A stretch of DNA of 64,000 nt from Alphaproteobacteria bacterium (GCA_035437825.1 DAOMYX010000001.1:113220-177219), one strand, 5' to 3'. Positions 9,444 through 30,987 are shown, counted from the stretch's first letter. Notes: generated by a model from the sequence alone, not told the origin. Numbers and translations: made by a program.

Positions 9444-9519
<76 letters not shown>

Positions 9520-13382: not shown

Positions 13383-14529
13383 ATGAAAAGCGAAGTCTTA
13401 GCAGCGGTGGAGGAAATCAAGGCCTCCCTCGACCTGCTGAGGAGGCATCTTTGACTGGGACCGTGCTGTCCACCGTCTTGCCGAACTGAACGCCCTCGCT
13501 GAAGACCCCAAACTTTGGGATAATCAGGAACGCGCGCAAAAAATCCTCAAGGAACGCACCCGCCTCGAAGGTCAAATCGATGGCGTGCGCGCCATCGAAA
13601 ACAACCTGAGCGACCAGCTGGGCATGATTGAACTTGCCGAGATGGAAGGCGATGCCGCACTCGTGAGTGAAGCGGAGCAATCCCTCTACGCCATCAAAAC
13701 CGACGTTGCGCGCCGCGAACTGGAAAGCCTGCTGTCCGGTGAAATGGACGGTAGCGACGCTTATCTGCAAATCAACGCAGGGGCGGGCGGTACCGAAGCG
13801 GCCGACTGGGCGGGGATTATCTTCCGCATGTATATGCGCTGGGCGGAACAGCATGATTATAAGCTCGCGCTGCTCGACAAACAGGACGCCGACGTCGCGG
13901 GCATCAAATCCGCGACGCTGGAAATTTCCGGTCCCAATGCTTACGGCTGGCTGAAATCTGAATCGGGCGTGCATCGTCTTGTGCGTATCTCGCCCTACGA
14001 TTCCAATGCCCGCCGTCATACCAGCTTTTGCTCGGTTTCCGTCACGCCTGTGGTGGATGACGATATCGACATCACCATCGACCCCAAAGACCTGCGCGTG
14101 GATACCTACCGCTCCGGCGGCGCGGGCGGGCAGCACGTCAACAAAACGGATTCCGCCGTGCGCCTGACGCATATCCCGACGGGGATTGTGGTTGCGTGCC
14201 AGAACGAACGCTCCCAGCACAAAAACCGCGACCAGGCGATGAAAATGCTGAAAGCGAAGCTGTACGAGCGCGAGCAAATGATGCGCGACGCCGAAAAGCA
14301 GCAGCGCGAAGACGAAAAGACCGAAATCGGCTTTGGCCACCAGATACGCTCTTACGTTCTGCACCCCTACCAGATGGTCAAAGACCTGCGCACGGGGCAT
14401 GATACGTCGGATACGCAGGGCGTTTTGGATGGCGACCTTGATGCGTTCCTCGAAGCATCGCTGGCGCATAAACTGAACGCCGGCAAAGACGGCGCGGGCG
14501 CGAAAGTCGCCTACGAAGACCTCGATTAA
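13383..14529 (+). CDS. prfB: Peptide chain release factor 2, needs a programmed +1 frameshift (join 13383..13451, 13453..14529)
   Basis: Frame 0 encodes [23 protein letters not shown] and hits TGA at 13452. The +1 frame continues [29 protein letters not shown]... into ORF 13585..14529, which has SPF-type ([15 protein letters not shown]) and GGQ ([16 protein letters not shown]) motifs. Confidence 0.95.
13441..13455 (+). promoter_or_regulatory. prfB: prfB autoregulatory +1 frameshift site
   Basis: Internal SD-like AGGAGG, then CAT CTT TGA C: the canonical CUU UGA C slippery/stop context. Confidence 0.9.
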
Positions 14530-15106: not shown

Positions 15107-15703
15107 TCAGGGTGATTCGGGCGCGGTCTGCGGCGTTGTTTCCGCTGCGGGGGCGGTTGCATCTGCCGCTTTGCGGCGTGCGAAGACTTCTGGCGGCAGT
15201 TCCGCCGCCGTCAATTTCCAGCGCCAGTCGCGCAGGCGCAGGATGAACGTCATGCCCTTCGCTTCGATGCGGAATGTATCCGGGTTTTCAAAAAACGCGT
15301 GGTCGATGTCTTTGCGCGACAGGGGGCGTGGCTCTTTGTTCTGAATATCCTTGCCGTCAATTTTGACAAGCGCGCGGTCAAGCGCCATGCGCATGCCTGT
15401 CGGCGTGACGTAGGCATCGACGACCGCCTCTACGATTTTAGGCAGCATAACAAGGCTCGCCGCGCCGAAAATGCCGGTGCGGCCGTCCTGCCCCTTGGGC
15501 ACACGCGCGGCAAGATAGACATTTGCCTGTTCCTTCAGCGATTCACGCAGCATCGGGAAATCGACATGGGTTTCTATGACCTTTGCATCCATTTGCATTA
15601 CGCCCTTGTACAGGCGTTCCATGGCCAGATAGGGCGATGCAACGTAAAAGGCGACAAGCCCCAGCAGGGCGGCGGATACGGCGATTTTTGCAGGTGTTTT
15701 CAT
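15107..15703 (-). CDS. DUF2939-like membrane-anchored protein
   Basis: MKTPAKIAVSAALLGLVAFYVASPYLAMERLYKGVMQMDAKVIETHVDFPMLRESLKEQ matches my recollection of the DUF2939 N-terminus. Confidence 0.6.
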   Translation of the reverse strand: MKTPAKIAVSAALLGLVAFYVASPYLAMERLYKGVMQMDAKVIETHVDFPMLRESLKEQANVYLAARVPKGQDGRTGIFGAASLVMLPKIVEAVVDAYVTPTGMRMALDRALVKIDGKDIQNKEPRPLSRKDIDHAFFENPDTFRIEAKGMTFILRLRDWRWKLTAAELPPEVFARRKAADATAPAAETTPQTAPESP

Positions 15704-15749
15704 ACCCGATGATTACGACATTTTTGCCGCAAAGGGAATAGGGCGCGCT

Positions 15750-16322
15750 TTAATGGCGGCGGCGGATGGCGGGCAGCGATATCAACGGCACATCCTTCGC
15801 CGTGCCGTTGAGGCAGGCGGCGGGGCCTTCGGCTTTGTCGCGGTGTCTTTCGATGGTTTTGGCGAGCGCGTCATGGCCGCGCATCCGCGCGAGAACGGGG
15901 GCGTCATGCCCTTGCTCGCAGCTGGGGAAGGTATCCGCGCCACGCCAGAGCAAAGCTTCGGCAGCTTCTTCGGCATTTTGCCATGCGGCATACATCAGTG
16001 CGGTATAGCCGCGGCTGTTTTGCTTGTCGATGGTGGGGGCTGCCCCGTGCTGCAAAAGCAGTTTGACGATGTCGCTGCGCCGTGCCTGCGCGGCGGCCAT
16101 CAGCGGTGTGTCATCGGCGGCATAGGGCTTATCGTCCGGCTTGAATGGCTCCAGCCAGCAGGCGGCGCCGGCGCGGCTTGTGAGGGTTTCGGTGACTTCA
16201 GCCGTATTTCCGGCGCGGATAGCCTTGAAAAAGGCCTTGCGCTCCTCCGGTGTCGCGCCGGCGGTCTGGTCGAAAGCGGAAGATATGCCGTTTGCCTGTC
16301 CTGCGGTCACAGCCTGCACCAT
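15750..16322 (-). CDS. Ankyrin-repeat protein with basic C-terminal tail
   Basis: TPLMAAAQARRSDIVKLLLQHGAAPTIDKQNSRGYTALMYAAWQNAEEAAEALLWRGAD. No signal peptide. C-terminus is ...VPLISLPAIRRRH. Confidence 0.8.
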   Translation of the reverse strand: MVQAVTAGQANGISSAFDQTAGATPEERKAFFKAIRAGNTAEVTETLTSRAGAACWLEPFKPDDKPYAADDTPLMAAAQARRSDIVKLLLQHGAAPTIDKQNSRGYTALMYAAWQNAEEAAEALLWRGADTFPSCEQGHDAPVLARMRGHDALAKTIERHRDKAEGPAACLNGTAKDVPLISLPAIRRRH

Positions 16323-16527
16323 GTCGTTAAAAATTGAATTTTTTCATAATATTAAGGATTTTTCCTGCTGTCAACCCGCGCTTTGCCATGGGGGCGGAAA
16401 GGGGCATGTGCCTGAAATATGAACAGGTTTTTCCGAAAAACTGCTGGCAAAACGGCAGAGAATCCTTATGATGAGTGACCTAAATAATGACAATTTTTAT
16501 AAAGCCCACAATCCACGAGGATTTCCC

Positions 16528-19500
16528 ATGCGCCGTTCACGCTTTCTTGCCCTGACGAGTGTTTCCCTTGCTGCTGCGATGCTTCTGGCCACGACAGCGG
16601 TACAGGCAACGCAGCCCGCCGCGGTTCAGATGCTCGGCGTTTTGAAGCCGAAAGAGCAATGGAAAGTCGGCACGGTGGACAGCAGCGGCGCGCCTTATTG
16701 CGCCATGGTGGGCAAGTTCGACCAGGCCAGCACGCTGGCATTCGCGCGCAGTGCGGAAGGCTTCGGCTCCCTCGGTATCGAGTTCTATGACGACCTGTTC
16801 AAACCGGGCAAAAAATACGAAGTCACCCTGACCCTCGAAAACCTCGCCCCGCGCACATTCAGCGGGGAGGCAACGACGGCGCGCTCGCTGGTTTTGCAAA
16901 TCGGTGAAGACGATGCGCTCTATGATACTTTCAGCCGCAGCGAAACGTTGCGCGTCTCGACCTCTGCGATTGACGTGCGCTTCGCCATCAACAAATTCGA
17001 CAAGAAGTATAAAGAGCTTGTCACCTGCGCCACCGTTCTTGCGGGCCCGCAGGAGCAGGTAGAGCTGCCGCCCGCCGAAATGGCCGCAGCAGCCAAGGCA
17101 GAAGCCGAAGCCGCCGCCGCTGAAAAAACGGCCAGCGCCGAAAAACCGGCAGCACCGTTTACAAACTTTTTCCAAAGACTGCGCGCCAAGGCAGCGGGGC
17201 AGGAAGAGCCCGCAGCCACCCTTCGGCAGTATTCCGAAAGCGACATTGTCTGGAACGATGAAAAATCCGCCGCAAAAACCGCCGCGGCCGGCAAAAAAAA
17301 ATCTGACGACACCGCAGCCGTAACCCTGCCGCTGCCCAAACCGGGCACGCATAAGGGCGAAACGATTTTGGCGGCCTCCACCACGGCGGCGCCATCTGCT
17401 GTCGCAGCGCCTGCTATCAATGTGGATTCCGCCCCGCTGGCAGAAATGCCCGCGCCCGAAACAATGGATATGCCGCAGGAGCGTAAACTGCTCGCCTCCA
17501 TGGCGGTGACCGGTCATGCGGTCATGGCTGAAAACGTGGGCATGAGCGCGCGCGAGATGGAAAAAATCCAGGCCGCCAAGCTGGAGCGCGATATGGCGCG
17601 CAAGGAACAGGAAATCGCCACGCTGGCCGCCGAAACCACCAAGGCCGCACAGCAGCAGGTGCAGGAATCCGGCCGCCGTCAGGAGGCGATGCTGGTCGAG
17701 GCGAAAAACCTTCAACAGCAAATCGCCACGCTGGAAAAGTCTATGCTTGAAAAAGTGGCGGCGGAGAAAGCGGCTGAAAAATCCGCTGTTGTCGCTGCTG
17801 CTGCGCCTGTGGCAGAAGCTGCCGCCGCGGCTAAACTGGCTGATGATGCGCGCCTTGCAAAACAGCAAGCCGAAGAGCTTGCCAAAAAACAAGCCGATAT
17901 GGACAAGTTGATGGCCGCACGCGAAGCGGAAACCCGCAAGCTGGCCGAAGCCCTGAGCAAGACAGAGGCTGAATTCAACACCCGCGTCGCCACGCTGGAA
18001 AGCGAGCGCAGTGTTTTGCGCGGCCAGCTGGATACGGCTATCACCGAAAGCCGCACCGTCGTGCCTGCGCTTGAATCTGCGAAGCGCGAGGGGGATACGA
18101 AAATCCGTGCGCTCGAAGAACAGTTGGGGGCGGCCGAAGCGGCGCGTGCCTCGTTGCGCCAACAGCTGACGGATGCGGAAACCGCGAACAAGGAACTGGC
18201 TGAAAGCCTGAAGGCGCAGCAAATGGAACGCGCCCGTGCCGAAGAAGCCCTGCGCCGCGCCAGCGAGCTGGAAGCGCAGCTGGCAGCACAAACCCGTCAG
18301 GCAAAAGAGCTGGAACTGGCATTGGCCGCTGAAAAAGCAAAGCCGCCCGTGACGGTAGAAGTGCCCGTGGAAGTGCCTGCCAAGGCCGACCCGAAGCTGG
18401 CCGAAGAAAAGGCGCAGCTTGAATCGCGCCTGAACAACGCTGTCGCCGCGCGCGCGGCCGAGGCAAAACGCCTCGCCGAAGTCGAAGCTCTGCGCAAAGC
18501 AGAAGCAGAGCAACTGGCGAAGATGGAAAACGAACGTAAGGCTGAAGCAGAACGCCTTGCAAATCTGGAGCAGGAGCGTGTAGCAGCTGCCGCCCGCATG
18601 GCAAAGCTGGAGGCGGAGCGTAAGGCCGAAGCGGAGCGTATCGCCAAGCTGGATGCCGCGCGTCAGGCGGAGGAGGCTGCCAAACTGGCACAAATCGAAG
18701 CCGAGCGTATAGCAGAGGCAGAACGTATTGCGAAGCTTGAAGCCGAGCGTAAAGCGGAAGCAGAGCGCGTGGCCAAGCTGGAAGAAGAACGCAAGGCGGA
18801 AGCGCTGCGTATCGCCAAGATTGAAGCGGAGCGCAGAGCAGAAGCCGAACGCGTCGCCAAGATGGAAACCGAGCGTAAAGCGGAAGCAGAGCGCGTGGCC
18901 AAGCTCGAAGAGGAACGCAAGACGGAAGCGCTGCGTATCGCCAAGATTGAAGAAGAGCGTAAAGCAGAAGCCTTGCGCCTCGCCAAGCTGGAAGAAGAAC
19001 GCCGCCTGCAAAGCGTGCGTGCCGCCGAGCTGGCGCAGGAGCGTGAAGCTGCCCGTATGAAAGCGGACGAAGAAATCCGCCGCCTGCGTGAAGAAAAAGC
19101 GGCGCTGGAGCAAAAGCTGGCGCTTGAACAAAAACAAGCTGCCGCGCAAAAGCTGGCGCTGGAGCAAAAACAGGCCGCTGATAAATTTGCCGTGAAAGCG
19201 GCCGCGATGAAAACGGAGCAGGCGGTAGCAGCCTTGCCGGCAGTGACGCTGAAGCCTGCCGCACCTGCGCCCGTAGCCGCTGCGCGTGCCTTGCCGCCGC
19301 TTGAAAAGCGTGAAGTGGCCGCTGTGCCCGCCGTACCGCCGTCACCGGCTGTCGGGGCGCGTAGCCTGTCGCGTCTTGAGCCGGCAGCGGGTGATTCCGA
19401 CCTGACCTCGGGCGGTAACCGTGCCGAGGCTTTCCTTGAGGGCATCATGAAGCATCACCGCCCGCAAGGCACAGCCGCACCCAAAAACGCTGTGAAAACG

Positions 19501-20205
19501 CCCTCCGTGCCTGCGCCTCAGGCGGCGAAAGCTGTACCGCAGGCGGCTATGCCGTCTTCTGTCCGTCCGCAAGTTCCCGTTGTGGAAACGCCGCGTTTGC
19601 GCAATGCGCCTGCGGCTGCGGCGCCCACCGGACGCGCCGTTAGCCTTGAAACCCTGCTGGAGCAATCCGGCGTGCGCGGCGCGGTGTTTCAGCCGATGCA
19701 GCAATCGGGCGCGGAAGCTTCGCGCCAATGGTCTTTGGGTCGTTTGAGCGGTCTTTACGAACAAATGCCCGCCGCAGGCCAGCCCTTCGACCGTCTGACG
19801 CAGGATTATGTCGGGCGTTACCGCGACGATTGCCCGCAGCACCTGACGGTGAAAATGGGCAATCCCGAACAAACGCCCGCGGGTGTGGTTTCCAGCGGCA
19901 CGCTGTCTTGCGCGATGCCGGGCAATGCCTATGAAACCTCGATGTTGTTCGTGCAGTCGGGCAGCGGTTTTGCCGCGATTTTGCATTCCGGCAACCCGTC
20001 CGACGCAGCGCAGGTAAAATCGTTGGGAGATAATATTTTCTACACGCTGTCATCGTCGGCAGGGCTGTCGCCTTTACCCGCAGCAGCGGCAGCGTCCGCC
20101 GCGCCGCAAGCGCAGTATGATGCCCGCCGCACGGTCATGTCGCCGGAGCCGCCGGTTTCCGCTGCGCAGCCGTCTGGTGAATTCAATACGGTTGTTATCG
20201 AATAA
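16528..20205 (+). CDS. Very large secreted coiled-coil protein with conserved N- and C-terminal globular domains
   Basis: ATG at 16528 follows GAGGA. Signal peptide MRRSRFLALTSVSLAAAMLLATTAVQA. The central several hundred residues are A/E/K/R/L-rich heptad-like sequence, including a 14-aa repeat array. The C-terminal domain has two Cys. It is a paralogue of the next gene. Confidence 0.8.
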   Translation: MRRSRFLALTSVSLAAAMLLATTAVQATQPAAVQMLGVLKPKEQWKVGTVDSSGAPYCAMVGKFDQASTLAFARSAEGFGSLGIEFYDDLFKPGKKYEVTLTLENLAPRTFSGEATTARSLVLQIGEDDALYDTFSRSETLRVSTSAIDVRFAINKFDKKYKELVTCATVLAGPQEQVELPPAEMAAAAKAEAEAAAAEKTASAEKPAAPFTNFFQRLRAKAAGQEEPAATLRQYSESDIVWNDEKSAAKTAAAGKKKSDDTAAVTLPLPKPGTHKGETILAASTTAAPSAVAAPAINVDSAPLAEMPAPETMDMPQERKLLASMAVTGHAVMAENVGMSAREMEKIQAAKLERDMARKEQEIATLAAETTKAAQQQVQESGRRQEAMLVEAKNLQQQIATLEKSMLEKVAAEKAAEKSAVVAAAAPVAEAAAAAKLADDARLAKQQAEELAKKQADMDKLMAAREAETRKLAEALSKTEAEFNTRVATLESERSVLRGQLDTAITESRTVVPALESAKREGDTKIRALEEQLGAAEAARASLRQQLTDAETANKELAESLKAQQMERARAEEALRRASELEAQLAAQTRQAKELELALAAEKAKPPVTVEVPVEVPAKADPKLAEEKAQLESRLNNAVAARAAEAKRLAEVEALRKAEAEQLAKMENERKAEAERLANLEQERVAAAARMAKLEAERKAEAERIAKLDAARQAEEAAKLAQIEAERIAEAERIAKLEAERKAEAERVAKLEEERKAEALRIAKIEAERRAEAERVAKMETERKAEAERVAKLEEERKTEALRIAKIEEERKAEALRLAKLEEERRLQSVRAAELAQEREAARMKADEEIRRLREEKAALEQKLALEQKQAAAQKLALEQKQAADKFAVKAAAMKTEQAVAALPAVTLKPAAPAPVAAARALPPLEKREVAAVPAVPPSPAVGARSLSRLEPAAGDSDLTSGGNRAEAFLEGIMKHHRPQGTAAPKNAVKTPSVPAPQAAKAVPQAAMPSSVRPQVPVVETPRLRNAPAAAAPTGRAVSLETLLEQSGVRGAVFQPMQQSGAEASRQWSLGRLSGLYEQMPAAGQPFDRLTQDYVGRYRDDCPQHLTVKMGNPEQTPAGVVSSGTLSCAMPGNAYETSMLFVQSGSGFAAILHSGNPSDAAQVKSLGDNIFYTLSSSAGLSPLPAAAAASAAPQAQYDARRTVMSPEPPVSAAQPSGEFNTVVIE
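18460..19060 (+). repeat. In-frame 42-nt (14-aa) tandem repeat array inside the coiled-coil gene
   Basis: About 13 units of type ERKAEAERVAKLEE / ERKAEALRIAKIEE. Two roughly 90-nt stretches starting at 18745 and 18871 are near-identical (period 126 nt = 3 units). Confidence 0.85.
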
Positions 20206-20238
20206 ACGGGGCGAAGCATAAAGCGCAAAGGTAAAATA

Positions 20239-21681
20239 ATGATGATGCGCCCTGCGATAGTTGCCGCACTTCTGGCTGTCGGTCTTATTTTTACCGCAGC
20301 GCCGCTATCCGCGCAGGCCTTGCGCAGCGAGCCGGGCGAGTGGGTCGTCGGCCCTATCAATATCAAATCTTCAAACGGGCTTTCTTTCTGCTCGATGAAA
20401 ACGCGCTATGCGAACGGGCATTCGCTGGTGGTCGCCAGCGACAGCAAAGGCGCGCGTTCGCTGGCCATCGATTTCGGCAAAAAATCACTGACAGCGGGTT
20501 CGCAATACTACGTTACGTTTTATGTCGGCCCCATCCACCGCACCATGGTGGCGATTGCCGCAACGACCGATGTTTTGATTGCCCAGATGGGCGATGACCG
20601 TGATTTTTTCGACATGATGCGCAGCAAAGATGTGCTGGATGCGGATTTCAACAACCAGCAGCTGAGCTTTTCTCTGAAGGGCGCAGCGCAGGCGCTTGAT
20701 GAACTCGCTACATGCACCAGCGCGCAAGGGCAGGGACAAGCCTATACACAGGCTAAACTGCCGACGCCTGCGCAGGCCGCGGCCAAGGCCGCCGAAGCCA
20801 AAGCTGTCGCGGCGGAGCTGGCGCGCAACGAAGACATGAAAATAAGCGAACAGGCCGTCAGTACCAGCCTTTCCGACGAAATACAGCGCCTGCGCGAAGA
20901 AAACCGCCGCTTGCAGCTGGAAAATCAGGCCGTATCCGCACGGCTGCAAGAGGGAGATTTGGCGGCGGCACAAGCCGAGCTGACGGCGCTGGCGGAGCTG
21001 GAGCGGCGCGAGCGTGCCCTTAAAATCGAAAACGAGCGCCTGCGTGATGAAACCGACAGCATGCTGGCGGTGCAGGAAAGCCTTACCCCGTCAACCCGCA
21101 CGCCCGGCACGGCGGCGGAAGCGGTTTCGGTGCGTTTCCAAACCCCGCCACCGCAGGCTATCCAGCCTGCCGCAGGCCACCCGGCGGCGCAGGCCATGGA
21201 TGATGCCGTGATGTCACCTGCCCCCGAAGCTATAGAAGCGGCGGTGGTGATGCCGAAAGCCCAAGCCCCCAAACCGATAGCGGCACGCACTTTGGCGTGG
21301 CTGGCGCATGACGGCGCAGCGGCGGAAACGGCAGGCGGTATTTCCGTATGGCGGTGGGTGAGTGGTAACAGTCTGGTTGCTGTGCAGCCTTGGCCCGCGG
21401 CGGGGACGTCAGCTGTTGCCGAATATTTGTCCGTCCTTGAAGCGCGCTGCGGCGGCGACTTCGCACAGCAGGCGGCGGCGCCTGTTGCTGTATCCGGCAA
21501 CGTGAATGTTGTGACGGCGGAAGTGGCCTGCATCGATGCCGACAATCAGGCGGCCGCGGTGCTGGCGTTTATATCTGACGGTTCGGAAATGGCGGTGGTG
21601 ACGTTTGAAACAGGGGCGGAGACGATTTCTGATGCCCTTGGTCAGCGGCAGTCGCTTTTGGCACGGGTTTCCGGCGAATAA
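20239..21681 (+). CDS. Secreted coiled-coil protein, short paralogue of 16528..20205
   Basis: Signal peptide MMMRPAIVAALLAVGLIFTAAPLSAQA. By eye the N-domain (GEWVVGP...LSFCSMKT...LSFSLKGAAQALDELATC) and C-domain (YLSVLEARCGGDF...AEVACID...AAVLAFISDGSEMAVV) align with the ends of the upstream giant protein. Confidence 0.75.
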   Translation: MMMRPAIVAALLAVGLIFTAAPLSAQALRSEPGEWVVGPINIKSSNGLSFCSMKTRYANGHSLVVASDSKGARSLAIDFGKKSLTAGSQYYVTFYVGPIHRTMVAIAATTDVLIAQMGDDRDFFDMMRSKDVLDADFNNQQLSFSLKGAAQALDELATCTSAQGQGQAYTQAKLPTPAQAAAKAAEAKAVAAELARNEDMKISEQAVSTSLSDEIQRLREENRRLQLENQAVSARLQEGDLAAAQAELTALAELERRERALKIENERLRDETDSMLAVQESLTPSTRTPGTAAEAVSVRFQTPPPQAIQPAAGHPAAQAMDDAVMSPAPEAIEAAVVMPKAQAPKPIAARTLAWLAHDGAAAETAGGISVWRWVSGNSLVAVQPWPAAGTSAVAEYLSVLEARCGGDFAQQAAAPVAVSGNVNVVTAEVACIDADNQAAAVLAFISDGSEMAVVTFETGAETISDALGQRQSLLARVSGE

Positions 21682-21746: not shown

Positions 21747-22262
21747 TTAATGTTTTTTATTGCGGTAATAACGGCCGCAAGCTTCCATCAATGCTTCGCG
21801 CAGCTCTTTGCCCGTTTTGCCGCCGTCGCCTTTCAGGTGGCTGGCAAGTACGGCCTTGATAGACATTTTATGCGCAACGACGATGTCGAGAACGTCGCGG
21901 TCCATATCTTCAACCGTTTCAAGAAAATTTACCAATATATGGCTGATATCACTGATAAGCGGGTAGTGAAACATGCTGCCTTGTGCCTTCATTTGCATGG
22001 CAGGGTAAATCATAGCCTCGATAGCTTCTTCGCCTTTTGTCGTGCCGGCTTTGGCATCTGCGATAGCTTCGACCAGCAGGTCGAGCAGCATATTTGCAAT
22101 GGGCTCGAAATTTATGGTGTTTTTTTCAAGCAATTCCTGTGCTTTCATCAGCACAGCCTCGTCGATGCCGCCGCTGCCGACTTTTTCTTTAAGACGGTTG
22201 GGCGGGCTGATAAGTTCTGCGCGGCGGATTTTCTGCTGCTGCGGAAAAAGTTCTTGAGACAT
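21747..22262 (-). CDS. Hypothetical helical protein co-transcribed with a response regulator (possible degenerate HPt-like partner)
   Basis: 171 aa, 33 nt downstream of the regulator gene. Segment PAMQMKAQGSMFHYPLISDISHILVNFLE is only loosely reminiscent of HPt signatures. Confidence 0.4.
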   Translation of the reverse strand: MSQELFPQQQKIRRAELISPPNRLKEKVGSGGIDEAVLMKAQELLEKNTINFEPIANMLLDLLVEAIADAKAGTTKGEEAIEAMIYPAMQMKAQGSMFHYPLISDISHILVNFLETVEDMDRDVLDIVVAHKMSIKAVLASHLKGDGGKTGKELREALMEACGRYYRNKKH

Positions 22263-22294
22263 GGCGCTTTATTCTTTTTTCTTGTGCGTGTGGA

Positions 22295-22891
22295 TTAAGA
22301 CGTGGTGCCGGTTTCCTGCGTGTGTTTACGCAGGATTTCCCGCGCTTTTTCAGCAGCGGAGAGAGTGGCCTTGATACGCTCGGGCGAGCTGAACGGTTCC
22401 GGCTGGTTGTCGCCGCGGCGGTCGGGGCCGGCGTAGTTTGAATCGCGCTTGCGGCGGCGGTCGGGACCGAAATATTTATCGCTGACCACGAAGTAGCGCG
22501 GCATTTCGATAATTTGTTCGATGCGCTGATAGAGCGCGCGCGCGGTGAAGGGCTTGACGAGAAATTCCGTAATGCCTGAATCTCGCGCCAGCAGCACGCG
22601 TTTTTTCTGGCTGTACCCCGTCATCAGGATGATGGGGGTGAAGGGGTTGGGGCTGTCGCCGGAGCTGCGGATGCGGCGGGTGAGCGCAAGGCCGGAGTCC
22701 GGCTCCTGCATCCAGTCGATAATCACAAGGTCAGGCTCCAGCGTGCAAAACTTTTCGTAGCCTTCTTGCGACGTGAAGGCGGTGTGAATATCCGTCACCC
22801 CGAAAGTGATGAGGATGGACTTGGTCAAATCGGCCATGGCGCGGGTGCTTTCGACCAGCAGCACAGTCATGTTTTTAAATTGATAAGCCAT
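22295..22891 (-). CDS. Response regulator: receiver domain plus basic C-terminal extension with two GPDRR motifs
   Basis: Receiver landmarks: DLVIIDWMQ (phospho-Asp), ILMTGY, FLVKPF. C-terminal YFGPDRRRKRDSNYAGPDRRGDN. No recognisable DNA-binding domain. Confidence 0.85.
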   Translation of the reverse strand: MAYQFKNMTVLLVESTRAMADLTKSILITFGVTDIHTAFTSQEGYEKFCTLEPDLVIIDWMQEPDSGLALTRRIRSSGDSPNPFTPIILMTGYSQKKRVLLARDSGITEFLVKPFTARALYQRIEQIIEMPRYFVVSDKYFGPDRRRKRDSNYAGPDRRGDNQPEPFSSPERIKATLSAAEKAREILRKHTQETGTTS

Positions 22892-27595: not shown

Positions 27596-28333
27596 ATGGA
27601 TCCGACCATTGCCGTACAGACCACGCAGCTTGCGGGCACCGTGCATCACGATTTGTCCGTTATGGGACTGTTTTTGCAGGCCGATATCATCGTCAAATCG
27701 GTGATGCTGATTTTGGCCGGCTCGTCCATCTGGAGCTGGGCGATTATTTTCGACAAGTGGATTACGTTCAAATCCATCAACCACAAGGCAAATAAATTCG
27801 AAGCGGCTTTCTGGTCGGGCGAAGTGCTGGATAAACTCTACAAAAGAATCCAGAACAAGCCGGGCGACCCGATGGCGCAAATTTTCTGCGCTGGCATGAA
27901 CGAGTGGAAACTTTCCGCCGAAGCTGCCGTGCATATCGACGGCGATTTGCGCGCAGGGCTGCAGCAGCGTATCGACCGCGCGATGGTGAGTGCCATCGGC
28001 CGCGAAGTCAGCAAGCTGGAGCGTTATATGACCTTCCTTGCGACTGTCGGCTCCACCGCGCCTTTCGTCGGTTTGTTCGGCACGGTCTGGGGTATCATGA
28101 ACAGCTTCGCCGCTATCGCGGGTTCGCAAAACACCAGCCTTGCCGTCGTCGCGCCGGGTATTGCGGAGGCGTTGTTTGCAACCGCCATCGGCCTTGTCGC
28201 CGCTATCCCTGCGGTTGTGGCATATAACAAATTCTCGACCGACCTCAACCGCTATAGCGACCGGATGGAGGCGTTCTCGACCGAATTCAGCGCCATCCTC
28301 GGCCGTCATTTCGAACAGCAGGGCAAAAACTGA
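27596..28333 (+). CDS. tolQ: Tol-Pal system protein TolQ
   Basis: MotA/TolQ/ExbB motifs: FLATVGSTAPFVGLFGTVWGIMNSF...APGIAEALFATAIGLVAAIPAVVAYN. Confidence 0.9.
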   Translation: MDPTIAVQTTQLAGTVHHDLSVMGLFLQADIIVKSVMLILAGSSIWSWAIIFDKWITFKSINHKANKFEAAFWSGEVLDKLYKRIQNKPGDPMAQIFCAGMNEWKLSAEAAVHIDGDLRAGLQQRIDRAMVSAIGREVSKLERYMTFLATVGSTAPFVGLFGTVWGIMNSFAAIAGSQNTSLAVVAPGIAEALFATAIGLVAAIPAVVAYNKFSTDLNRYSDRMEAFSTEFSAILGRHFEQQGKN

Positions 28334-28773
28334 TGGGCGTCAAACTCGGCAATAGCGGCGGACGCCGCCGCCGTGCACACGGGGTGATGGCGGAAATCAA
28401 CGTCACGCCCTTCGTGGACGTGATGCTGGTTTTGCTGGTTATCTTTATGGTGACCGCGCCGCTTTTGACTGCGGGCGTGCAAATCGATTTGCCCAAGGCG
28501 GATGCGCAGGCGATTGGCCAGCAGGATAACGCGCCGCTCGAAATCACGCTGGACCGTCAGGGGGCGCTGTTTGTCGGTGAAACCAAGATGACGGTGGAGC
28601 GTTTGACGGTGATGCTGCAATCGATTGCGGCGGAAACGACCGAACGCCGCGTTTATATCCGTGCGGACCAGGCATTGGACTACGGCAAAGTGATGGAAGT
28701 CATGGGGCTGGTCAGCCGCCTCGGCTTCACGAAAATCGCATTGGTGACCGACCCGACATCGGGCAAGAAATAA
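28333..28773 (+). CDS. tolR: Tol-Pal system protein TolR
   Basis: ExbD/TolR: MAEINVTPFVDVMLVLLVIFMVTAP. Its start overlaps the tolQ stop (TGATG). Confidence 0.9.
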   Translation: MGVKLGNSGGRRRRAHGVMAEINVTPFVDVMLVLLVIFMVTAPLLTAGVQIDLPKADAQAIGQQDNAPLEITLDRQGALFVGETKMTVERLTVMLQSIAAETTERRVYIRADQALDYGKVMEVMGLVSRLGFTKIALVTDPTSGKK

Positions 28774-28795
28774 CTTTTGGATTGGAAACTGGCGC

Positions 28796-29620
28796 ATGCG
28801 CCTTTCTTCTGTTGGCATATCGGCAGGATTTCACATCGCGGCAGTGATTGTCACGATGGTCAGCCTGCCGTGGCTGAAGAAGGATTTTGAAATCCCGCCG
28901 CCCGTGATGGTCGAATTCGTCGAAATGGGCAAGGTGACCGAAACAACCAAAGTCGCCACACCGACGCCGCAGAAAAAAGAAGAAAAAAAGGACGAGCCGC
29001 CACCGCCGCCCGCGCCCAAGAATACGGCGAAAGAGCCGACGCCGCCCGCACCCAAAAAGCCGGAGCCTAAAAAAGACGAAAAGAAAGACGCGAAGCCGGA
29101 GGTTGACCCCCTGGCCAAGGCCGACAAGAAGCCACCGCCCAAAAAGGACGAGAAAAAACAGCCCAAAAAAGACGACGCCAGCGATTTCAATTCGCTGCTT
29201 AAAAACCTTGCCGATTCCAAACCGGCACCGGCCAGCGATACGAAACAGCCGGATATGGGGCTGACGACGGCAGCGCCGGAAGTAGGGGCAAAAGCCCCCC
29301 TTGGCCAGAAAATGACCATGAGCGAGGAAGACGCCCTGCGCCGCCAGCTGGAGGGCTGCTGGAGCTTCCCCGCGGGCGCCAAGGATGCCGAAGATTTGAA
29401 CGTCGAGATTTATATGGTTATAAACCCCGACCGCACGCTGCGCGAGGCGCGGGTGGTCGATACCGCCCGTTATAACCGCGATAGTTTTTTCCGCGCGGCG
29501 GCGGACAGTGCGCTGCGGGCGGTGAACAATCCTTCCTGCTCGCCTTTTGCCGTGCCTCCTGATAAATATGATGTCTGGAAGACGACTGTCGTGAACTTTA
29601 ATCCGCGTGAAATGTTCTAA
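28796..29620 (+). CDS. tolA: TolA-like envelope-spanning protein
   Basis: N-terminal TM ([17 protein letters not shown]), Pro/Lys/Glu-rich spacer ([39 protein letters not shown]), and a C-terminal globular domain. Position between tolR and tolB. Confidence 0.75.
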
Positions 29621-29649
29621 ACCTAACGAACACCTATCAACAGAGGTCA

Positions 29650-30987
29650 ATGATGCGTAAATTTTATGGTATTTTTCTGGCAGCGGCGATGATGCTCGGC
29701 ATGACGCTGGCGGCCGTGCCCGCGCAGGCGGAACTGCGCATCGACGTCACCAAGGGCAACGTCACGCCGATGCCCATCGCCATTCCGGATTTCAAGGGCA
29801 GCAACGGCGCCGATAACGAAATGGGCGCCAAGATGACGCAGGTGATTGCGGCGAACCTCAACCGCTCCGGCCTGTTCCGCACGCTCGACCAGCGCTCTTT
29901 CATTCAGGATTCCATCGCTGCGCAGGCTGGCCCGCGCTTCGGCGACTGGCGCGCCATCAATGCGCAGGCCTTGGTGACAGGTGTTCTCAGCAAAACGGCC
30001 GAGGGTAAAACCCGCGTTGAATTCCGCCTGTGGGATGTTTTCTCCGAACAGCAAATGGTCGGCACCGCTTATATGACGACGCCGGAAAACTGGCGCCGCA
30101 TCGCACATATCATTTCCGACGCGATTTACAAGCGCATCACGGGCGAAGACGGCTATTTCGACAGCCGCATCGTTTATATTTCTGAAACCGGCCCTGCGAA
30201 CGCGCGTGAAAAGCGTCTGGCCATTATGGATCAGGACGGCGCCAACCACCGTTATCTGACCGATGGCCGCGCGCTGGTGCTGACCCCGCGTTTCTCGCCG
30301 ACGGAACAGAAAATCACCTATATGGCGTATTACAACAACAAGCCGCGCGTCTATGTCTATAACATCGACACGGGCAAGCAGGAAGTTCTGGGCGATTTCC
30401 CCGGCATGACCTTCGCGCCGCGCTTTTCGCCCGATGGCCGCCGCGTTATCATGTCGCTGTCCAAAAACGGCAACAGCGATATTTATACGCTCGACCTTGG
30501 CTCCCGCGCTGTGCGCCAGCTGACGAATGACAGCTCCATCAACACCAGCCCCAGCTTCGCGCCGGATGGGCGTCAGGTGGCGTTTGAATCCGACCGTGGC
30601 GGCACGCAGCAGATTTACGTCATGAATGCTGATGGCAGCGGCGCCAAGCGTATTACCTTTGGCGATGGCCGCTATGCGAACCCCGTATGGTCGCCGCGCG
30701 GTGATTTGATTGCCTTCACCAAAATGCTGAAGGGTCAGTTCTATATCGGCGTTATCCGCCCCGACGGCAGCGGCGAGCGTTTGATTACGCAGGCCTTCCA
30801 CGTCGAAGGGCCGACATGGTCGCCGAACGGCCGCGTGCTGTCTTACTTCAAGGAAAGCCCGACGGGCGTGCGCCGCACCGGTCGCAGTGCGCAGGTCTAT
30901 ACTATCGACCTGACAGGGTATAACGAACAACGCCTGCCGCTGCCGCAGGATGGTTCCGACCCTGCATGGTCGCCGCTGAATAAATAA
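29650..30987 (+). CDS. tolB: Tol-Pal system beta-propeller protein TolB
   Basis: Signal peptide, then repeated propeller blades ([44 protein letters not shown]). Confidence 0.95.

Follow-up and report, generated by a model that had tools for sequence, protein, structure and literature searches.

IalB-domain proteins of Alphaproteobacteria are exported and carry a beta-rich domain of roughly 140 residues; to our knowledge RgsG is the only one among them for which cell-biological data are available. RgsG of Sinorhizobium meliloti is an essential periplasmic protein that is found at the growth pole and belongs to the Tol-Pal/Rgs interaction network (PMC7327166). In Vibrio cholerae, the adjacent homologous genes for CrvA and CrvB specify a coiled-coil-type periplasmic filament that curves the cell, and one of the two paralogues has extra C-terminal sequence (bioRxiv 10.1101/2020.02.20.954503). 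TolA domain II, a spacer in the periplasm, is a long A/E/K-rich helix in which short repeats follow one another in tandem, and the fold common to PsbP, DcrB, EagT6, SciW and MTC28 occurs in proteins many of which are periplasmic, lumenal or secreted and serve in binding or as adaptors. Here we describe two adjacent genes, p1 and p2, located in a 64,000-nucleotide stretch of DNA from an alphaproteobacterium (GCA_035437825.1, DAOMYX010000001.1:113220-177219; the whole of this stretch is referred to as the window). The long (p1) and short (p2) proteins appear to have an IalB-like domain at the N-terminus (N-domain), a PsbP/DcrB-like domain at the C-terminus (C-domain) and a helical spacer of very different length between them. 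We read them as periplasmic, probably dimeric, non-enzymatic tethers or scaffolds of the cell envelope, an interpretation to which we give roughly an even chance of being correct.

The N-domains of p1 and p2 share with IalB and RgsG the alphaproteobacterial origin, export, size and beta-rich character, but IalB and RgsG are small single-domain proteins, whereas the N-domain considered here is one end of a multi-part protein of 480-1225 aa. As with CrvA and CrvB, the genes are adjacent and homologous and encode export signals and coiled-coil-type regions, and both hosts are curved rods; the analogy is one of organisation, although a functional parallel would also be attractive for a vibrioid host, and IalB-like and PsbP-like end domains have not been described for CrvA/CrvB. 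The rod of p1 is comparable to TolA domain II, but both proteins lack the membrane anchor and domain III of TolA. The C-domain resembles the PsbP/DcrB group in its fold and, as in MTC28 and Apa, comes after a Pro-rich region. However, identity between this group and the p2 C-domain is about 10%, the p1/p2 family has an invariant Cys pair and an RCxGDFA motif of its own, and none of the known PsbP/DcrB-fold proteins has this domain placed at the end of a helical rod.

The p1-p2 gene pair and its family

The interval 16528-21681, marked in a first-pass annotation of the window, is spanned exactly by two plus-strand open reading frames (ORFs), p1 and p2 (Table 1). The p1 frame begins with an ATG at 16528, which is preceded at a distance of 7 nt by a GAGGA ribosome-binding site (RBS), and ends with a stop codon at 20203-20205; the p2 frame runs from an ATG at 20239 to a stop codon at 21679-21681. 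Another in-frame ATG is present 5' of p1, at 16468, and is unused by the orthologues; because every one of these begins with MRRS, we place the start of p1 at 16528. Since no terminator-like site was found in the 33-nt gap between p1 and p2, the two genes are probably co-transcribed as a single message.

The end domains of the two proteins had been paired by eye, with formal alignment left to decide, and alignment finds significant similarity at both ends. In BLASTP, the N-domains are 27% identical over 156 aa (E 4e-13; p1 residues 17-169 to p2 residues 9-161), and comparison of N-domain family profiles with hhalign gave 98.6% (E 7e-16). The C-domains were not significantly similar in BLASTP (E 0.017 without composition correction) and reached 85% (E 6e-6) in a first hhalign comparison of profiles. 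Better profiles, in which 7 p1-type C-domains were compared to 173 other C-domains of the family, gave 98.8% and E 5.6e-17 in an alignment of 130 columns that keeps the two Cys residues in register, as against E 0.38 for a reversed-sequence control and 0.3-0.4 for N-versus-C cross comparisons. All motifs quoted in the annotation are present in p1 and p2, and its description of adjacent paralogues with common N- and C-terminal domains and very unequal spacers is confirmed by BLASTP and by profile comparison. By these measures of sequence, p1 and p2 are true paralogues at both ends. In a rough neighbour-joining tree of N-domains, p1 groups with other very long members and p2 falls in a separate 'short' clade, which suggests that the duplication is old. 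No further copy of either domain was found in the 64-kb window.

The pair belongs to a large, unnamed and uncharacterised family. An exhaustive profile search retrieved 1153 clusters (at 50% identity) at E<=1e-3, a number that falls to 641 when the threshold is tightened to E<=1e-10 and to 119 when it is set at E<=1e-30; among the 150 matches listed, lengths range from 101 to 1360 aa, the shortest being fragments. Domain content was checked in 197 proteins, 184 of which have both domains, separated by spacers of 21-1055 aa (median 192). The annotation had described p1 and p2 as a length-graded pair; the notion of tethers of different length stands, but a pair is too narrow a frame for a family of at least several hundred clusters with such a span of spacers. 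Close relatives of p2, retrieved by a word-indexed search, comprise 30 clusters of hypothetical proteins of 456-534 aa from uncultured Alphaproteobacteria, with a mean column identity of 52% in the p2 family alignment (A1). The same type of search with the concatenated end domains of p1 yielded only 3 fragments, so p1 orthologues were recovered via synteny, and with the broad alignment A5 it yielded nothing new. The p1-p2 pair is found in Micavibrio-like metagenome-assembled genomes, with 94% identity to 'Rhodospirillaceae bacterium UBA8982'.

Compact members of the family are encoded on plasmids and chromids of cultured Azospirillum (tblastn), where the two domains are 24 aa apart without a rod; a local hidden Markov model (HMM) recognises the N-domain at E 1e-27 and the C-domain at E 1e-19. 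The compact genes adjoin genes of a branched-chain amino-acid ATP-binding cassette transporter.

In databases the relatives are named 'hypothetical protein' or, wrongly, 'chromosome segregation ATPase'. The latter name, given to some of them by JGI, would imply an SMC protein, a candidate that we rejected: the TIGR02168 SMC model matches p1 weakly at residues 326-595 (E 5.7e-4, 17.7 bits against a cut-off of 567), in the coiled-coil part only, and p1, which carries a signal peptide, gave no match to ATPase motifs. None of the Pfam and NCBIfam models matches the p1/p2 architecture, and no description of it was found in the literature on IalB with coiled coils, on Micavibrio with coiled coils and on the TcpQ domain. 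The first-pass view that it corresponds to no characterised system is thus upheld by Pfam, NCBIfam and the database names.

Folds of the two end domains

AlphaFold2 models were built for the isolated end domains of p2 from family alignments. The N-domain model (predicted local distance difference test, pLDDT, 91.4) is beta-rich, with a C-terminal helix that closes the domain, and an IalB-like beta fold can be expected for the p1 N-domain on the strength of the p2 model. In a Foldseek search, the six best PDB matches of the model were all chains of Bartonella henselae IalB (3DTD), aligned at full length over 145-153 columns (E 2.8e-4 to 3.6e-3; template modelling, TM, score 0.58-0.63); the next match, the N-domain of MotY, had a much lower score. 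At the sequence level, the Pfam IalB model PF06776 matched neither full-length p1 or p2 (E<=1) nor any of 49 full-length relatives (E<=0.001) nor any of 37 isolated N-domains (E<=1), and the family profiles A2 and A6 did not find the 3DTD sequence among all PDB sequences at E<=10. The sole recurrent Pfam signal, a weak one, was to DUF1176 (one member at 5.5e-5, and four N-domains, the best at 0.018). The annotation had likened the sequence pattern to IalB and had proposed PF06776 as the check; the likeness is borne out for the fold (3DTD, TM 0.6, E 2.8e-4), whereas membership of the N-domain in the PF06776 sequence family could not be demonstrated. That RgsG, an IalB-domain protein, is periplasmic and part of the Tol-Pal network is one of the points in favour of a periplasmic envelope role for p1 and p2.

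A local HMM (E<=1e-4) also recognises the N-domain in two genomes at a greater distance, where it is followed in the same protein by TcpQ (PF10671), present once or twice. The respective genes (L017 6829-7839 and L018 6231-7853), which in both genomes stand in front of a long family member, encode a signal peptide, the IalB-like N-domain and PF10671 in place of the rod plus C-domain, so that they represent a third architecture of the N-domain. The fusion suggests that this domain is a portable periplasmic module. TcpQ of V. cholerae is a secretin-associated pilus protein, and the existence of an N-domain paralogue with TcpQ domains in relatives is one of the points that speak for a surface fibre or adhesin, one of the possibilities raised in the annotation. 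On such a view p1 and p2 would be exported by Sec, cross the outer membrane through a system encoded elsewhere and stand out from the cell as rods, and the distal head would bind prey or a substrate.

The model of the p2 C-domain (pLDDT 94.3) has an alpha/beta Mog1/PsbP-like fold, an alpha-beta-alpha sandwich. Its Foldseek matches include DcrB (6E8A; E 3.4e-4, TM 0.58) and cyanobacterial PsbP (2XB3; E 8e-4, TM 0.58), as well as the EagT6 (6XRF)/SciW chaperones and mycobacterial MTC28/Apa; for the whole set, TM is 0.5-0.6 and E 3e-4 to 1e-2. The Pfam models for PsbP, DcrB and DUF1795 gave no sequence match to p1, p2 or the 49 relatives, and the C-domain profile A3 found nothing among PDB sequences at E<=10. 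The family presents known folds in a new arrangement.

In sets of 49 and 62 diverse members, exactly four Cys residues, two per domain, never vary. An invariant pair in each domain points to one disulfide per domain and to an oxidising compartment, and each globular domain is probably locked by a single disulfide bond.

Helical spacers, export and the envelope interpretation

The domains of p1 are separated by 861 aa, about 470-555 aa of which are of the helix type (A/E/K/R/Q/L). The rod is entered through a conserved ERKLLASM...GMSAREME motif and is split by the Pro-rich hinge PPVTVEVPVEVPAKADP; its last block, residues 628-896, contains the tandem repeat RIAKLEAERKAEAE, which is ER/K-rich in composition. 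Further on, the core of the motif NRAEAFLEGIMKHHRPQG is invariant in the first six aligned p1-type sequences, and a variant, NSAEAFLDRIMSYHHVPG, is seen in the L014 orthologue.

Heptads were assessed by a home-made test for hydrophobic residues that recur every 3.5 positions; in calibration, tropomyosin scored z 7-10 and Lpp z 7.5-9.2. The periodicity is clear in p1 residues 477-605 (z about 5-6), lower in residues 341-476 (z 2-3.6) and only -0.8 to 2.9 in residues 628-896, where the density of opposite charges at i/i+4 (0.17-0.19) is like that of TolA domain II. Because this block combines weak heptads with such a density of charge pairs, the 'coiled coil' may in places be a charged helix of the ER/K type. 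The heptad spacers reported in the annotation are thus apparent in one segment of p1 but not in the longest one, with its 14-aa repeat. The companion argument, that the spacer exceeds the width of the periplasm, is weaker than it was put, because the rod, far from being an unbroken heptad coiled coil, is a series of helical segments with Pro-rich hinges and long Ala/Pro linkers.

In p2, the domains are about 176 aa apart, with about 70-100 aa of helix. In the zipper, heptad position d is occupied by Leu and position a by Asn, residues L218, L225, N229, L261 and L268 being invariant in A1; the heptad test is underpowered at such a short length. Leu at d together with Asn at a is the signature of parallel dimeric leucine zippers, and the rods of this family probably pair as parallel dimers. 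The LxxENxxL motif is repeated along the rods of the large relatives, which accounts for the matches of distant members to bZIP_1. Among p1, p2 and the 49 relatives, coiled-coil families were the sole Pfam-type matches (bZIP_1 up to 4e-15, Filament 5e-9, crescentin rod 3e-10).

All p1-type proteins end in a short tail, for which the lineage has the consensus [DEN][FW]xT[VI]V[VI][QE]-COOH, with K in place of T in L016. The tail is preceded by unalignable sequence and is seen neither in p2-type proteins nor in other members of the family. The L016 gene (5866-7509) encodes a p1-type protein of 547 aa in which the N-domain is followed by a helical stretch of about 200 aa and, without a C-domain, by the tail NWKTVIIQ, which suggests that the tail can function independently of the C-domain. 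As a side observation, the p1 tail, EFxTVV(I/V)Q, resembles the short beta-strand motif of TonB and TolB boxes (ETxVV).

Two further observations concern the repetitive part of p1. On the minus strand (window 16537-19345) there are very long antisense ORFs of 876 aa, 434 aa and other lengths; they are low in complexity, mirror the repetitive A/E/K/R codons of p1 and are almost certainly not genes. Metagenome assemblies often end inside the 42-nt repeat (P0031, L002 2-598 and L004 2-1288), and p1-type proteins are therefore likely to be under-represented or truncated in protein databases.

Both proteins carry Sec signal peptides, as the annotation had noted, and the sequence features agree. Judged by eye and with a hydropathy script, p1 has an MRRSR n-region, a 20-aa hydrophobic core and small residues at -3/-1, and p2 has an MMMR n-region, a hydrophobic core and an AQA|L site. 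An N-terminal hydrophobic core is present in 173 of 179 family members. Sequence inspection and the script revealed neither a lipobox nor a later transmembrane-like window in p1 or p2. Residence in the periplasm is suggested by the four invariant Cys residues and by the housekeeping neighbourhood of the genes (prfB ... yebC-ruvCAB-tolQRAB).

Taken together with the folds and the rods, and on the evidence of sequence and models, p1 and p2 are best regarded as candidate tethers or scaffolds. The Sec signal peptide would be cleaved and a soluble structural protein would stay in the periplasm, built, from N to C, of an IalB-fold domain, a flexible Ala/Pro linker, a helical rod, a second linker and a PsbP/DcrB-fold domain. 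Parallel pairing of the rods would bring both N-heads together at one end of the molecule and both C-heads at the opposite end. If binding is the task of the heads and the rod keeps them apart, such proteins would connect or organise components of the envelope, hence a tether or scaffold role. In this scheme p2 would be the fixed-length version, with a zipper and linker that together come close to the width of the periplasm, and p1 the long version, whose length drifts as the 14-aa ER/K-type repeat expands and contracts. Besides its diverged C-head, p1 has the strand-like tail (xFxTVVIQ), a probable docking element for a partner.

Several points weigh against the tether or scaffold interpretation. 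The heptad signal is weak in the longest segment of p1 and in p2, so that a single charged helix or a hairpin is possible. With all helices aligned (about 470 aa), p1 would reach up to about 70 nm, far beyond the width of the periplasm, and hence it cannot be a simple perpendicular strut. It is possible, too, that the signal sequence of p1 and p2 is an uncleaved signal anchor. Finally, the heads of the Azospirillum proteins are only 24 aa apart, which suggests that they may work side by side on one target and not bridge two.

The last point leads to an alternative in which the N- and C-domains form a single periplasmic unit of the DcrB/EagT/PsbP type that binds ligands or peptides or resembles a chaperone, and the helices merely serve oligomerisation or form a stalk, an antiparallel hairpin whose length varies. 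In some members of the family the spacer is a mere 21-24 aa, and the fold of the C-domain matches adaptor and chaperone proteins (EagT6/SciW, DcrB). A hairpin would also suit the near-invariant D240, which lies at the middle of the p2 helical region within the EGD/SD-type break of most orthologues, and the similar length of p1 blocks 341-605 and 628-896 on either side of the Pro hinge. However, the equal arms are not kept in evolution, as the p1 orthologues in L003 and L005 are without most of the second helical arm; disordered Ala/Pro linkers of about 70-145 aa flank the rods, for which a hairpin would have no need; and by coiled-coil rules the Asn-at-a zipper motifs favour parallel, in-register pairing. 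We consider this single-unit arrangement fairly unlikely.

Table 1. Features of p1 and p2 in the window and compact relatives in Azospirillum
Feature	Position	Strand	Extent	Remarks	Basis
p1 gene, long paralogue	16528..20205	+	1225 aa plus stop		ORF and orthologue starts
p1 Sec-type signal peptide	16528..16608	+	aa 1-27	predicted cleavage VQA|TQ	by sequence
p1 N-domain	16636..17061	+	aa 37-178	two invariant Cys	HMM envelope; homology to p2 N-domain
p1 linker, Ala/Pro/Lys-rich	17062..17472	+	aa 179-315	length and sequence vary	orthologue alignment
p1 helical rod	17473..19215	+	aa 316-896	segments 341-476, 477-605, 628-896	composition and P/G scan
Pro-rich hinge PPVTVEVPVEVPAKADP	18343..18393	+	aa 606-622	splits rod; kept in close orthologues	
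42-nt (14-aa) tandem repeat RIAKLEAERKAEAE	18595..18994	+	9.5 copies		Tandem Repeats Finder
Motif NRAEAFLEGIMKHHRPQG	19417..19470	+		in second Ala/Pro linker of p1	orthologue alignment
p1 C-domain	19645..20067	+	aa 1040-1180	divergent, PsbP/DcrB-like; two conserved Cys	hhalign against 173 C-domains
p1 C-terminal tail EFNTVVIE	20179..20202	+		in all p1-type proteins	
Intergenic spacer p1/p2	20206..20238	+	33 nt	holds p2 RBS AAAGG	
p2 gene, short paralogue	20239..21681	+	480 aa plus stop		ORF; orthologues
p2 Sec-type signal peptide	20239..20319	+	aa 1-27	predicted cleavage AQA|LR	by sequence
p2 N-domain	20320..20748	+	aa 28-170	invariant C51 and C159	AlphaFold2 model
p2 helical zipper	20770..21063	+	aa 178-275	three LxxENxxL/V motifs	alignment A1
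p2 Pro/Ala-rich variable linker	21064..21276	+	aa 276-346, about 70 aa	most indel-rich part of A1	alignment A1
p2 C-domain	21277..21678	+	aa 347-480	invariant C404 and C431	AlphaFold2 model
Compact member, Azospirillum thermophilum	L019 4716-5981			hypothetical protein WP_109333829.1	
Compact member, A. ramasamyi	L020 4737-6005			hypothetical protein WP_111068647.1	

Locus conservation, neighbouring genes and wider meaning

A p1-type gene lies directly upstream of the p2-type gene, 3-33 nt away, in 16/16 Micavibrio-like loci that contain one of the p2 type. The order is constant: prfB, small ORFs, an ankyrin-repeat gene on the opposite strand, p1, p2 and then convergent genes, namely a 171-aa ORF and a response regulator on the opposite strand, followed by yebC-ruvCAB-ybgC-tolQRAB. 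The comparison of spacer length among relatives that the annotation had called for shows that p1 varies, partly via the 14-aa repeat, and that p2 is steady: p1 orthologues are 547-1409 aa long with 0-10 copies of RIAKLEAERKAEAE, and p2 orthologues stay within 456-534 aa. Even the close relatives L001 and L009, with p1 proteins of 1292 and 1121 aa, differ by 171 aa.

Such a rapid change of repeat number between close relatives is typical of surface proteins and would accord with the fibre or adhesin introduced above, as would a p1 rod that, if extended, is longer than the periplasm, and the occurrence of the pair in a Micavibrio-like group, for which an adhesin would suit an epibiotic predator. 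On the other hand, the end domains are highly conserved (see the column identity of p2), unlike typical adhesin tips, the position of the genes among housekeeping genes is constant in all loci, rod-less members exist in free-living Azospirillum, and secretion genes are not adjacent. Neither p1 nor p2 has an autotransporter barrel, a type 1 secretion C-terminal signal, a cell-wall anchor, a lipobox or a sortase or S-layer motif, and no enzyme, beta-barrel, LysM/OmpA/SLH or secretion-signal family matched p1, p2 or the 49 relatives. Lacking both an anchor for the outer membrane and a module for export across it, p1 and p2 are in our view unlikely to be a surface fibre or adhesin, and this branch of the first-pass proposal finds no support. 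An autotransporter, trimeric autotransporter or S-layer fibre was rejected as a candidate, there being no barrel or SLH/OmpA anchor and the C-terminus being a soluble PsbP-like domain.

A TolA/TonB-type energy-coupled spanner, in which the A/E/K/R-rich helix would be the equivalent of TolA domain II, would be in keeping with the charge-pair density (0.19) and composition of the p1 repeat, which equal those of TolA domain II, and with the presence of tolQRAB 6 kb downstream. However, the N-terminus resembles a cleavable signal peptide and not the TolA anchor, no TolA or TonB C-terminal domain was matched in p1 or p2, and a separate tolA is present at 28796-29620 in the canonical order tolQ-tolR-tolA-tolB. 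Such a spanner is extremely improbable, and identity of p1 or p2 with TolA itself is excluded because the genome has its own tolQRAB (27596-30987).

That cluster comprises canonical tolQ, tolR and tolB genes and a tolA-like gene, whose 274-aa product has a membrane anchor, a domain II that is Pro/Lys-rich rather than helical, and a weak match to TIGR02794. Closer to the pair, the minus strand at 21747-22891 encodes the 171-aa ORF, which has no family match, and a response regulator of 198 aa with a single domain and a basic C-terminal extension; both are convergent to p2 and keep their position in all Micavibrio-like loci. On the other side, the minus strand at 15107-16322, divergent from p1, encodes a DUF2939 protein and the ankyrin-repeat protein, which lacks a signal peptide; the ankyrin gene keeps its place next to p1 in those loci for which tables of called genes were consulted. 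Farther upstream, the sequence CTTTGAC at 13449-13455, the classic prfB programmed +1 frameshift site, shortly precedes the long release factor 2 (RF2) ORF (13585-14529), the N-terminal part of RF2 being missing in that frame. A single tRNA gene (9444-9516) was the sole Rfam match in the window at the gathering threshold.

A more specific version of the tether or scaffold interpretation would make p1 and p2 the units of a hitherto unseen periplasmic 'periskeleton' of Micavibrio-like predators and their relatives, in which the p1 tail would attach to some partner, for instance a motor of the Tol/TonB type. Dimeric rods cross-linked via their IalB-like and PsbP-like heads could form a lattice or filament that sets the spacing of the envelope or the vibrioid shape of the cell. 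The core of the p1 tail, ETVV(I/V), resembles the TonB box, a motif that binds by adding a strand to a beta-sheet of its partner. We hold this elaboration to be very doubtful.

The family to which p1 and p2 belong comprises several hundred clusters of conserved, exported proteins; it is unnamed, is covered by neither Pfam nor NCBIfam and has yet to see any member studied, and it probably sits in the envelope of under-studied predatory and related alphaproteobacteria. With two constant heads and a spacer stretched from 21 to more than 1000 residues, it amounts to a natural experiment on the length of periplasmic spacers, and its compact homologues in Azospirillum are a genetically tractable entry point. 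If the role in tethering or cell shape is true, these proteins would be a second example, after CrvAB, of periplasmic cytoskeleton-like systems and would give the first functional handle on the IalB fold.

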